Shown here: positions 2,852-10,411 of the stretch, piece after piece
How positions within the stretch are numbered: the stretch's first letter is position 1
Layout: each line of letters begins with the position of its first letter
Virus record (IMG/VR): IMGVR_UViG_3300032053_011359
DNA length: 10,722 nucleotides
Source of the DNA: a virus
Direction: 5' to 3' (one strand)
Program-made: the position numbers and the translations under genes
Notes under the pieces: generated by a model
The model's input: the letters and a program-made list of their open reading frames with translations, nothing else
Database searches by the model: none
Told to the model about the DNA's origin: nothing

Positions 2852-2897
2852 AAAGCCTCCAGCAGCAAGTATAGCCGCAACCCCAACCGGAGGAACG
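2852..2897. promoter_or_regulatory. Divergent promoter region. The minus-strand -10-like CTATACT (2874-2868) sits 17 nt upstream of the SD-GTG of the membrane gene. The same TATA core on the + strand (AGTATAGCC) lies 25 nt upstream of the + strand GTG at 2898, with GGAGGA at 2889-2894.
   Basis: This is one of only five TATA tetramers in the window. The CTATACT heptamer is repeated at 6056-6050 and 6727-6721, with a CTACACT variant at 10349-10343. All four sit at heads of minus-strand units. The + strand architecture mirrors the 10382-10414 region upstream of the 88-aa gene (GTATAAGCC..AACC..AAGGAGG..TTG). Confidence 0.4.
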
Positions 2898-3086
2898 GTG
2901 CAACAACTAAAAACTGAAGACATCATCAAGTACGAGGCCGACGAGATGACGACCGAAGAAGAAGTGGCCTTTTTCCAGAAGCTCATCGACACCGGCATGG
3001 CCTGGACTCTTCAAGGGCACTATGGCCGCATGGCCGAGAGGTTCATCGACGAGGGGCTGTGTCATCAGAAGGAGAACGACGCGTAA
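2898..3086 (+). CDS. Hypothetical small acidic protein (about 62 aa; GTG start; alternative ATG at 2946)
   Basis: GTG at 2898 is in frame with the 2667-3086 ORF and is preceded by GGAGGA with a 3-nt spacer. The part of that ORF upstream of 2898 is antisense to the membrane gene and reads as junk. The C-terminal sequence (EEEVAFFQKLIDTGMAWTLQGHYGRMAERFIDEGL) is protein-like. The gene is divergent from the membrane operon and is followed by a + strand terminator. Confidence 0.45.
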   Translation: MQQLKTEDIIKYEADEMTTEEEVAFFQKLIDTGMAWTLQGHYGRMAERFIDEGLCHQKENDA

Positions 3087-3210
3087 CACACCAGACTACG
3101 CAGTAAAGCCGACGTAGTGTCGGCGGCGATCAGTCCGGGCGGTTACAAGCTCCGCGGCCTAGCCGCGTCTCTTGACACCGCCTGGCGTCGAGACGCAATC
3201 TAAGTGGTGT

Positions 3211-3239
3211 ACCCTCCCTGACGCTGGGGAGGTTTTTTT
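3211..3239 (+). terminator. Rho-independent terminator on the + strand, serving the small + gene. It abuts the stop codon of the convergent 353-aa gene.
   Basis: CCTCCC (3213-3218) pairs with GGGAGG (3227-3232) around the 8-nt loop tgacgctg. Seven Ts follow immediately at 3233-3239. On the minus strand the run is an A-tract upstream of the stem, so the element is orientation-specific for +. Confidence 0.6.
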
Positions 3240-8282: not shown

Positions 8283-9734
8283 TCAATCGTTTTCAGGCTG
8301 ACGCAACATTTGCCGAACCTGCTGGTTTAGCTGCTCTTTACGGGAGCCCATTTCATCGAGGTACTCATCGACGCCGTACCCCGGCTTCCGAAGGCCCGTA
8401 CGCTCCAGGAGTCCTTGCGGAGCCCGCGTGGCGAGGTAGCGCTGGACCAGCACCTTCCGCTCATCCTCAGGCAACGCTGCGTGGCTCTTGTAGCGGATCC
8501 CTCGTCCGATGACCTGCTTCAACTTCTCCTGATTCCAGTGTGGCTCGAGCAGCTGGATGAGACGCGTTCCCTTGAGGTCAAGGCCCTCGCCGCCAGCGCT
8601 CGACAGAAGCAGAGCTTTCAGCTTGTTGTCGTTGTAGTCCTTGACCATCTGGTCGCGGGTCGCCCGGGCCATGCTCCCGGTGAACGACCCGTGCGGGATG
8701 CCAAGTTCCTCGAGCTTCTTCTTGTACGGGTCGATTCCCGACTCAAGGTAGTGCGAGTAGACGATTGCCTTGGCGTTCGGGTTCTTCTCCAACATCTTCT
8801 GGAGCTCCTGAACGGCACGGTCAATCTTCGGCTGGTTCGCTGGTTCGACGCTGGTGTCGAACCCCCGGGTCGTATTCGAGATTTGCCGGACACCGCTCAG
8901 GAATGAGTTGAGCTGCTTGGCCTCCGCTTTCGTGGGCGGGAGGTTCTGCAGAACTTTGTTCCGCACCCAGCTTGGTTGATCCGCGGTCACGTGCGAATAG
9001 AGCTTCATTTGCCCCGAGGTCATCGGTACGCGGACTGTCTCGTCTTCTCGTGTCGGGAAGTTTTCCGTGCTCCCGGGGTGGTAGTCGACGTACTTGTCGA
9101 GTGCGTGCTGAAGGTACCCGGTGCTCCGAGGGTTGAGGCGTGTTTGGTACGACGCCGGGGTACCCCTCAGGCGGTCCCAGAGCCCTCGTTTGTTGGGTAC
9201 GTCCATCAGGAAGCGCTGGGTAAACGCGTCGGGGTCTTCGGGAAGGATTGACCGGCCCGCTACGAAGTTGATCGGCCCCGCGACGTCAGAAGGATGGTTG
9301 TAGAGGAGTGACCCCGTAAGGGCGAGTCGCTTCTCCGCAGGAGACGCCTTGAGCCCCGCTCGAGCCTTCCCTGCGTTTCTGATGCGATGCGCCTCATCAA
9401 CGATCAGGAGTGGTTGGTGCAGCCCCGCCCCTTCGTTTCGTGCGACCCCTTCGATGCTCTGTAGGTGGGACGGCAGCGGCTTGTTCGTGTGAGCTTTGAT
9501 CTCCTTGCTGTAGTTCGACTGTAGGGCTGCAGGAGTGACTACGTCGGACGGAAGACCGAGCGCCTCCTGCACCGCGATGCTGGTCAACGTCTTTCCAGAG
9601 CCGAGTCCGTGCGCAGCTACGAGTCCTGGCTGGTCTTCGTCTTCCATGCGGTCTACGACCCGCTGCTGGTGGGGCTTCAGCTTCGTGGTGAGCTTGGCGA
9701 TCTTGAACCGCTCAAGCATGCGCGTGTTGGTCAT
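8283..9734 (-). CDS. SNF2-family DNA-dependent ATPase/helicase (DEAH box)
   Basis: LKPHQ is followed by Walker A HGLGSGKT. Motif II is LLIVDEAHRIRN. A TGS motif (LALTGSLLYN) is present. The C-terminal helicase domain has AIVYSHYLESG..SAGGEGLDLKG..QVIGRGIRY. ATG at 9734 with GGAGGA 5 nt upstream. The track's GTG at 9749 is 5 codons longer. Confidence 0.9.
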   Translation of the reverse strand: MTNTRMLERFKIAKLTTKLKPHQQRVVDRMEDEDQPGLVAAHGLGSGKTLTSIAVQEALGLPSDVVTPAALQSNYSKEIKAHTNKPLPSHLQSIEGVARNEGAGLHQPLLIVDEAHRIRNAGKARAGLKASPAEKRLALTGSLLYNHPSDVAGPINFVAGRSILPEDPDAFTQRFLMDVPNKRGLWDRLRGTPASYQTRLNPRSTGYLQHALDKYVDYHPGSTENFPTREDETVRVPMTSGQMKLYSHVTADQPSWVRNKVLQNLPPTKAEAKQLNSFLSGVRQISNTTRGFDTSVEPANQPKIDRAVQELQKMLEKNPNAKAIVYSHYLESGIDPYKKKLEELGIPHGSFTGSMARATRDQMVKDYNDNKLKALLLSSAGGEGLDLKGTRLIQLLEPHWNQEKLKQVIGRGIRYKSHAALPEDERKVLVQRYLATRAPQGLLERTGLRKPGYGVDEYLDEMGSRKEQLNQQVRQMLRQPEND

Positions 9735-9990
9735 CGGTTCCTCCGCCACATACGGTGCAGGTGCCCTCTGCGTGCCCCAGGCTCACGTTGGCCTCCGTAC
9801 GCAATACCGGCTCCTTCGTTCCTGCGTCCAGGTACAGGGTAGCATTCCCCTGGATCTCCACGTACGACGTTTCGATGCGTCGCCCGTCAGCGTACTGCAC
9901 CAGGAATGACGTCTTCTTGGGGAGACGTTTGATCGAAATCTTCTTGACCTTCTCGTCTCCTACCGAACGCTTCGTGCGCCTAGGACTCAT
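9712..9990 (-). CDS. Hypothetical 92-aa protein with a basic N-terminus and a beta-rich core
   Basis: ATG at 9990 overlaps the REC gene stop (ATGAGTCCTAGG), and the 3' end overlaps the SNF2 start by 23 nt. It fits the tightly coupled minus-strand array. The overlapping + strand ORFs read as junk. The RBS is weak. Confidence 0.45.
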   Translation of the reverse strand: MSPRRTKRSVGDEKVKKISIKRLPKKTSFLVQYADGRRIETSYVEIQGNATLYLDAGTKEPVLRTEANVSLGHAEGTCTVCGGGTDDQHAHA

Positions 9991-10336
9991 CGCCTACCGC
10001 CTTGTACAGTTCGTGGAGCCCGAACGGTTTACTCAGTAGCTCCGCGGCCACGGTCTTCTTAGCTCGGATTTCCGCGGCATTCAGCACACCGGACATGATG
10101 ACCACCCGGATTCCTTCCAGGTACCCTCCGAGGCGCAGCACCTCGAGCATCTCGAGCCCATCGCTGTTGGGCATGGAGATGTCGGTCAAGAGAACGTCGG
10201 GCTGGTGCAGAATGAATCGTGCCGTGCCGTCCACGCCGTCTTCTGCTTCGAGCACGGTCCACCCGTGCTTCTCCAAAGCCAGGTGTACGAACTTTCTGAT
10301 GGACTCGTCGTCATCGACGACCAGCACGGTTTTCAC
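9980..10336 (-). CDS. Stand-alone CheY-like response-regulator receiver (REC) domain protein
   Basis: VLVVDDDESIRKF (acidic pocket), DVLLTDISMPNSDGLEML (phospho-acceptor Asp), SGV..A and KPF (conserved Lys) are present. No output domain is present in the 118 aa. GTG at 10336 is preceded on the minus strand by CTACACT-TGAGGG, which matches the motif geometry of the leaderless units. Confidence 0.9.
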   Translation of the reverse strand: MKTVLVVDDDESIRKFVHLALEKHGWTVLEAEDGVDGTARFILHQPDVLLTDISMPNSDGLEMLEVLRLGGYLEGIRVVIMSGVLNAAEIRAKKTVAAELLSKPFGLHELYKAVGDES

Positions 10337-10411
10337 CCCTCAAGTGTAGGCCTTCCCGCCCGTAAAAGCTGGCCCTTTTGGGTATAAGCCCCTGAACCAA
10401 AGGAGGCTGCA
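10337..10411. promoter_or_regulatory. Back-to-back divergent promoter region. The minus-strand CTACACT (10349-10343) lies 6 nt before the REC GTG. The + strand TATAAG (10383-10388) lies 24 nt before the TTG of the 88-aa gene, with AAGGAGG at 10400-10406.
   Basis: The window's fifth TATA tetramer is here. The + strand GGTATAAGCCCCTGAACCAAAGGAGG parallels AGTATAGCCGCAACCCCAACCGGAGGA at 2868-2894. Confidence 0.4.

Follow-up and report, generated by a model that had tools for sequence, protein, structure and literature searches.

Leaderless genes carry a characteristic upstream signal: the first T of a TANNNT hexamer lies about 12 bp before the start codon (PMC3160421) and, in Deinococcus, a motif 6-7 bp before the open reading frame (ORF) was shown to act as the -10 region (PMC12340547). 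The NNN of TANNNT is nearly free of information in high-GC hosts (PMC3160421). GUG-initiated leaderless mRNAs are efficient in mycobacteria and rare in Caulobacter, where about 17% of mRNAs are leaderless and only 4.4% of these start with a codon other than AUG (PMC8459731). For phages, a summary of the work of Sevostyanova et al. 2007 gives most middle and late transcripts of phiYS40 as leaderless (PMC3594737). Here we describe a motif with this geometry, CTA[T/C/A]ACT, in the IMG/VR virus record IMGVR_UViG_3300032053_011359 (10,722 nucleotides (nt), all of which were analysed and which we call the window) and in related phages. The motif is real, non-random and conserved. It is probably a sigma-70-family extended -10 promoter that, with no -35 element, gives leaderless mRNAs of three genes of the window (the receiver-domain gene REC, a 75-aa gene and a 156-aa gene) and an mRNA with a short leader of a fourth, the membrane gene.

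The heptamer and its place before minus-strand genes

The window has a G+C content of 60% and contains TATA only five times (at 2870, 3801, 6052, 6723 and 10383), as a preliminary description of this DNA had counted. That description assigned four of the five to the heptamer CTATACT; this is correct for three, all on the minus strand (the plus strand of the window has no CTATACT), but the fourth, GTATAAG, belongs to a different conserved plus-strand motif. A copy with one mismatch, CTACACT, is present as described. The motif copies and the genes behind the heptamers are:

2868-2874, 6050-6056 and 6721-6727, minus strand: CTATACT (AGTATAG on the plus strand)
10343-10349, minus strand: CTACACT, the one-mismatch copy (AGTGTAG on the plus strand)
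10382-10388, plus strand: GTATAAG
9980-10336, minus strand: REC, a stand-alone response-regulator receiver domain of 118 aa (Pfam Response_reg, 7e-20); start GTG 10336; proposed to be leaderless
6488-6715, minus strand: 75-aa gene; start GTG 6715; no Shine-Dalgarno (SD) sequence
5573-6043, minus strand: 156-aa Gly/Ala-rich gene; start ATG 6043; proposed to be leaderless
2399-2851, minus strand: 150-aa gene, the membrane gene of the preliminary description; start GTG 2851; SD sequence GGAGG at 2856-2860

Read on the minus strand, the order at REC is TACACT (10348-10343), TGAGGG and GTG 10336, at the 75-aa gene TATACT (6726-6721), TCTGC and GTG 6715, and at the 156-aa gene TATACT (6055-6050), GCCTGC and ATG 6043. 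The gaps are 6, 5 and 6 nt, in agreement with the earlier statement that these copies end 5-6 nt before ATG or GTG codons without an SD sequence, and the first T of TANNNT lies 11-13 nt 5' of the start at all three sites. At the membrane gene, TATACT (2873-2868) is followed by 16 nt that include GGAGG (2860-2856) and then by GTG 2851; the distance of 17 nt given previously is one too long. An SD sequence is absent before the REC, 75-aa and 156-aa genes, where just 5-6 nt separate box and start. Most other genes of the window have clear GGAGG-type SD sequences, as read from the sequence, and the absence is therefore specific to these heads.

The starts of the REC, 75-aa and 156-aa genes are the first start codons of their ORFs, with no in-frame alternative upstream and no plausible start downstream, and the conservation of the proteins begins at residue 1-2. 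The starts are thus forced. An in-frame TGA lies 6 nt 5' of the REC start GTG 10336. The public gene call for REC uses GTG 10327 (115 aa), three codons short of GTG 10336 (118 aa); the codon at 10327 is not conserved (GTA in the related genome L006, GCC in L009) and the Pfam receiver-domain match starts already at residue 4. The next in-frame start of the 75-aa gene is 57 nt downstream, within the conserved N-terminus.

On both strands of the window together there are three exact heptamers, compared with 0.16 expected from 200 dinucleotide-preserving shuffles; the shuffle maximum was two and none of the 200 reached three. The earlier figure of about 0.3 heptamers per strand is correct as a mononucleotide estimate. 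The total number of TATACT copies is not above mononucleotide expectation (5 against 4.1 in the related genome L004): the exceptional feature is the placement and the conservation of the copies, not their total number.

An 8-kb ENA contig matches the window at 99.95% identity, and IMGVR_UViG_3300036766_000644 (188.6 kb, 188,569 bp; here c644) at about 96%. The helicase of the window shares 76-85% identity with those of related contigs of 168-190 kb and 42-47% with those of more distant contigs. Clade-wide counts were made on 220.5 kb of non-redundant sequence from five contigs, less than a third of each genome; the five are the closest genome, three members of the clade and L008, which is more distant. 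Of the 33 TATACT copies in this set, 17 (52%) have 5-7 nt 3' of the hexamer a start codon that opens an ORF of at least 50 aa. The same geometry is seen for 55 of 1741 copies (3.2%) of 59 composition-matched permutations of the hexamer, a 16-fold enrichment of TATACT with a Fisher p-value of 2e-16 that overstates the evidence, as orthologous sites are not independent; the conservation of such sites is itself evidence. In the closest genome, all eight TATACT copies within 51.6 kb are at gene heads. Among 212 genes called by a crude codon-usage gene finder that made no use of the motif, 21 have a TANNNT whose end lies exactly 6 nt from the start, compared with about 1.5 at other offsets.

In alignments with four related phages, orthologous heads retain the motif between flanks that have diverged. 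The REC head reads TACACT-N6-GTG in the window, L004, L005 and L009 and TAAACT-N6-GTG in L006 (50% G+C). The 75-aa head is TATACT-N5-GTG in L004 and L009 and TATATT-N6-ATG in L005, and the motif is absent at this head in L006. The 156-aa head is TATACT followed by N6 or N7 and ATG in all genomes, and CTATACT is the longest invariant non-coding block of its four-genome alignment. At the membrane-gene head, L009 has TATGCT-N16 and L006 TATACT-N17, both with an SD sequence. The variants (TATACT, TATATT, TATGCT, TACACT, TAAACT) differ from each other only at the N positions of TANNNT. Six more ortholog groups outside the window behave in the same way; at the helicase head of L008, for example, the box comes after a classical terminator. 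Across 11 independent ortholog groups, T-12, A-11 and T-7 are present in 11/11, as is C at -13; the hexamer is TATACT in nine and TACACT or TAAACT in the others, and eight groups have a G two bases further 5' of C(-13). The genomes with conserved sites range from 50 to 60% G+C. No conserved element is found around -35 in the aligned sites, and a consensus scan for canonical -35/-10 promoters finds none at these heads, in line with the earlier remark that a consistent -35 is lacking. An archaeal TATA box was rejected, as it would sit about 26 nt upstream, not 6.

Another of these six groups lies at L004 7706-7734 (contig 156516-156544): two divergent genes 27 bp apart have back-to-back -10 boxes that form the near-palindrome AGTTTAG-C-CTATACT, and a polymerase on one box should exclude the other.

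The promoter would work as follows. RNA polymerase with a sigma-70-family factor would read C(-13), T-12, A-11 and T-7, melt the hexamer and initiate 6-8 nt downstream at a purine. At three sites of the window the initiating nucleotide would be the A or G of the start codon itself, resulting in a leaderless mRNA, and ribosomes would bind the 5'-terminal AUG or GUG without an SD sequence. At the fourth site, the element 16 nt upstream would leave a leader of about 10 nt with GGAGG for the membrane gene. T-12, A-11 and T-7 are the bases read by sigma region 2. Residue K173 of sigma-S (region 3.0) contacts C(-13), a structural basis for a promoter without -35 (PMC3367168), and such an extended contact can take the place of the -35 element.

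Conservation, the peak at 6 nt, the 16-fold enrichment and the forced starts all support the proposal of the preliminary description that the motif is a -10 element (TANNNT) for leaderless transcripts. CTATACT is also found 16-24 nt upstream of SD-led genes: the membrane gene, a 407-aa gene in c5727 and a tail-fibre-like operon (158, 592, 202, 2045 aa and onward). The variable distance, followed by an ordinary SD sequence, argues that the motif acts on the DNA, as a promoter. REC lies at a 75-bp divergent intergenic region, which must hold its promoter. Promoter activity and exact 5' ends are inferred from sequence, the 5' ends from the sharp 6-nt spacing to the starts.

Alternative explanations

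Several points weigh against the promoter reading, besides the non-independence of the orthologous sites. At the 75-aa gene the motif begins 1 nt past the stop codon of the HAD phosphatase gene and the gene start lies 13 nt past that stop, so this site may be an internal operon promoter rather than the head of a separate unit; of the earlier claim that the motif defines four minus-strand units, the part that makes it a promoter element is supported, but the 75-aa unit is possibly internal to an operon. One site of the clade, c644 140274, is itself coding and reads as Leu-Tyr codons at an ATGA stop-start overlap; its conservation may be partly that of the protein. Over their first 30 nt, the candidate leaderless mRNAs have weaker folds than internal windows (p = 0.002), but the starts of SD-led genes do not differ from them in this respect, and this test is therefore non-discriminating.

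A possible extension, on which we are reserved, is that the motif marks a dedicated temporal class, read by a phage-encoded sigma factor, a sigma-S-type host sigma factor or a phage-modified polymerase, with a programmed switch to leaderless mRNAs as in phiYS40; this refines the extended -10 promoter and does not exclude it. The middle positions of TATACT are unusually fixed, compared with their near lack of information in high-GC hosts (PMC3160421), C(-13) is invariant and the heptamer equals the sigma-S consensus (PMC5650638; PMC3367168). The second motif, described below, heads small-gene clusters and suggests that there are at least two promoter classes. CTATACT itself stands before the tail-fibre-like operon and before a run of genes guessed from sequence to be a possible lysis cassette, in which Pfam found nothing, and leaderless transcripts make up most of the middle and late ones of phiYS40 in the summary cited above (PMC3594737). 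On the other hand, the motif also heads genes of DNA metabolism (REC, helicase, HAD) and no clean class is visible, and the T(-14) and downstream TAA of sigma-S promoters are absent. Position -14, T or G in sigma-S promoters, is C in six, G in three and T in two of the 11 groups, and downstream of the hexamer T is found in only 6/11 groups, with no TAA. A T4-type late promoter was also considered: its box TATAAATA has no copy on either strand of the 220 kb.

A sigma factor that could serve such a class has one candidate. The distant relative L007, which shares only the helicase with the clade, encodes a sigma-70-like protein of 262 aa (L007 7963-8751, about 1.2 kb upstream of the helicase) that was matched by an approximate query of E. 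coli RpoD regions 2-4; homologues of this protein are named "specialised sigma subunit" by JGI and some carry Sigma70_r3. No sigma-like gene was found by profile search in the clade's 220 kb, which is less than a third of each genome, and neither this search nor a scan of viral contigs found the L007 family in the clade.

The motif could instead be an RNA-level signal, such as an A/U-rich translation enhancer, a stop-start coupling element or a nuclease processing site on longer transcripts, in which case the mRNAs would not be leaderless. The heads without SD sequences fit this, and at the 75-aa site, so close to the preceding stop codon, coupling on a longer transcript is possible and counts against the promoter reading; the c644 140274 site overlaps its ATGA stop-start junction. 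We nevertheless regard an RNA-level signal as unlikely: a translation signal would make no sense 16-24 nt before genes with their own SD sequence, REC has no co-directional upstream gene, the invariant positions T-12, A-11, T-7 and C-13 are the pattern of sigma contacts, and a G+C-rich hairpin stands between g156 and the gene upstream of it.

An operator for a DNA-binding regulator, instead of or besides a promoter, is improbable. FliZ recognises sigma-S-like -10 boxes including C(-13) (PMC3367168), and the two copies in the 27-bp divergent intergenic region form a near-palindrome, but most sites are single and non-palindromic, the fixed gap of 5-7 nt to the starts would be left unexplained and a candidate regulator is not known. 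Chance or composition, by which A/T-rich words would gather in the intergenic DNA of a G+C-rich genome, agrees with the unremarkable total of TATACT and can practically be dismissed, given the geometry in 52% of TATACT copies against 3.2% of the matched hexamers, the heptamer count unmatched by any shuffle and the sites kept across genomes of 50-60% G+C.

The second motif, neighbouring genes and relatives

GTATAAG at 10382 is part of a longer element:

10363-10388, plus strand: second motif, composed of TAAAAG (10363-10368), a T run and GGGTATAAG (10380-10388)

It heads the plus-strand g88 unit (TTG 10412, SD sequence 10401-10406) with a leader of about 20 nt. The general form is TAAAAG or GAAAC, 13-15 nt with a T run and GGGTAT[ACT]AG, with an SD-led gene 20-45 nt later. 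The clade has about 16 further intergenic copies (c644 183377 and 184411; c014 182550-184061; c5727b 180869-182745; L006 9569, 16762 and 17713), often right after terminators and before a conserved 5' hairpin and small-gene clusters; the motif also occurs in L025, a distant relative with 43% G+C. The second motif has a G where sigma-70 factors need T-7. It is a different class from CTATACT and may, judged from its sequence, be a phage-specific promoter class. More speculatively, the phages could have two promoter languages: the phage-wide bipartite GGGTATNAG-type motif (TAAAAG or GAAAC, 13-15 nt, GGGTATNAG) for clusters of small SD-led genes and CTATACT for a dedicated leaderless class that uses a phage-encoded or stress-type sigma factor. 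If this were true, the choice of promoter would be coupled to SD-independent translation, and a programmed switch could keep phage genes on in starved or translation-remodelled hosts.

The minus-strand genes are, in order, REC, a 92-aa gene, a SNF2-type helicase, an endonuclease VII gene, three small genes, a HAD/PNKP-type phosphatase, the 75-aa gene, a 138-aa gene and the Gly/Ala-rich genes of 156, 423 and 353 aa; beyond a short plus-strand DUF7417 gene follow the 150-aa gene and a 66-aa gene, again on the minus strand. Pfam and PHROGs recognise almost nothing beyond REC, the helicase, HAD, endonuclease VII, DUF7417 and a shoulder domain of the major vault protein (MVP); the 156-aa gene has no match in Pfam or PHROG, and no Rfam family was found in the window. 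A stand-alone receiver domain such as REC is unusual in a phage. The structures that delimit the units are:

6056-6073, minus strand: G+C-rich hairpin GGGGAGA-cgt-TCTCCCC, abutting the -10 element of the 156-aa gene
3213-3232: terminator hairpin between the convergent g353 (minus strand) and DUF7417 (plus strand) genes, with a T run 3' on the plus strand only
2171-2204, plus strand: terminator behind the MVP-like gene, where the membrane-gene unit ends

The hairpin at 6056-6073 has a fold energy of -20.9 kcal/mol (z-score -3.25); its counterpart in L009, GGGGAGC-ttcg-GCTCCCC, shows a compensatory change, and the hairpin is absent in L006. It probably forms the 3' end of the upstream unit, as an end structure or a terminator, with the promoter directly after it. 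The run g156-g423-g353, with the 156-aa gene at its head, extends to the terminator 3213-3232; termination of the minus-strand run is assumed there, the T run serving the plus strand only. Between the DUF7417 gene and this terminator lies a non-coding stretch of about 120 nt (3087-3210), which holds a hairpin (GCCGACgtagtGTCGGC) and TTGACA, shows 78% identity in L005 and matches no Rfam family. A 1.35-kb indel separates the window (3075-3084) from L004 (15944-17294), which has four extra small plus-strand genes after DUF7417. The product of the MVP-like gene (window 57-2165; 899 aa in L004, 18205-20904) is large, has shoulder and repeat domains of the major vault protein (Pfam 9e-20) and is 70-77% identical across the clade.

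The endonuclease VII gene (7827-8249; region 7852-8278 of the window) is an HNH gene that is absent from L004 (otherwise 95-97% identical), L005 and L009. It resembles a free-standing homing endonuclease that has inserted behind the helicase, before the next gene. The head of this HNH gene has TTGACA-N17-TATTAG and TAGCGT-N5-ATG, without C(-13). In the genomes without the insertion (L004 11453-11507 and its equivalents in L005 and L009), a hairpin that differs from genome to genome by compensatory changes (GGCTCCT...AGGAGC; GGCACCTCC...GGGAGTGCC) sequesters the SD sequence of the gene that follows the helicase, and a conserved TATACA lies upstream of this hairpin.

A megablast of the window against GenBank phages returned no match, and a protein search with the helicase found only two distant phages, of Salmonella and of Pseudanabaena. 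Four large contigs matched by the helicase profile are binned as Dependentiae, Leptolyngbyaceae, Bacteroidales and Gemmatimonadaceae; with such discordant bins among related contigs, host inference from genome bins was dropped. Papers citing the sample accessions were sought, with no result. Clusters of tRNA genes (L004 4544-5139, also in L005, L006, L008 and L009) serve mostly A/U-ending codons (Lys-ttt, Val-tac, Asn, Met and others), which hints that the host has a higher G+C content than the phage; a tRNA-SeC(tca) is predicted in L009. The contig 3300036766_000644 encodes in two clusters (162134-162768 and 181949-183329) at least seven small paralogous proteins that share the Cys-rich motif C-x-N-C ... 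H-x-D-G-A-C-L-F-E.

Implications and comparison with known systems

The motif allows promoters and operons to be mapped in an uncultured clade of phages of about 190 kb without a cultured relative, and brings a correction of the REC start, which the public gene call sets three codons too far downstream. It is a compact expression element, with neither -35 nor 5' untranslated region. Leaderless expression from a proximal -10 element is documented in Deinococcus-Thermus, Actinobacteria and Caulobacter, and in viral metagenomes the sequence alone is enough to recognise it. The motif is also a clue to the host, in which GUG-initiated leaderless mRNAs should be tolerated and a sigma factor should read C(-13). 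The expression mode is already known and knowledge of the mechanism is unchanged; its proposed occurrence here is in a new, uncultured phage lineage.

Of the features by which Zheng et al. 2011 recognise leaderless genes, a TA-like signal about 12 bp upstream, the absence of an SD sequence and a correct start are found at these heads, and an mRNA that begins with the start codon is predicted. The likeness to leaderless genes of Deinococcus-Thermus and Actinobacteria (PMC12340547; PMC3160421; PMC4633059) extends to a TANNNT 6-7 bp before the start, the lack of an SD sequence, a -35 that is not needed, and the use of both GTG and ATG starts, mixed in one genome with genes led by GGAG-type SD sequences. 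In contrast to these bacteria, the middle positions in the phage are strongly fixed (TATACT), C(-13) is invariant and the element belongs to an uncultured phage. The attribution to Actinobacteria in the preliminary description is unproven, as the heptamer is identical to the extended -10 consensus of E. coli sigma-S and is similar to the -10 boxes of alpha-proteobacterial RpoD.

With the latter boxes, the phage motif shares the G-C-TA-N-A start and the C at -13. Those boxes come from high-GC hosts, of which Caulobacter is rich in leaderless mRNAs; examples are the RpoD promoter of S. meliloti, CTTGAC-N17-CTATAT (PMC2873474), and that of Caulobacter, TTGaCgS / GCtANAWC (PMC8144410). Unlike them, the phage lacks the strong -35, and GTG starts are common in its clade. 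The likeness to E. coli sigma-S promoters (CTATACT / TCTATACTTAA / KCTAYRCTTAA; PMC5650638; PMC3367168) is an identical heptamer, including the C(-13) that determines selectivity. Sigma-S promoters are usually independent of a -35, and the phage variants CTACACT and CTATGCT fit CTAYRCT, but CTAAACT and CTATATT do not; moreover, sigma-S promoters, unlike the phage motif, are not associated with leaderless mRNAs.

Two phage systems are comparable. T4 late promoters, which depend on gp55 and the box TATAAATA, are -10-only and give late mRNAs with leaders; the likeness here is that of a phage promoter consisting of a -10 element with no -35, and the phage of the window likewise has rIIA-like genes. 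No gp55 homologue was found, although no search aimed at one could be made. The Thermus phage phiYS40, with a genome of about 150 kb, is likewise a large phage with a class of genes expressed from leaderless mRNAs. In phiYS40, 5' ends were mapped and the leaderless mRNAs come with a temporal class and a change in IF2 or IF3; in the phage of the window, leaderless mRNAs are predicted from the conserved boxes 5-7 nt before the starts of its genes.

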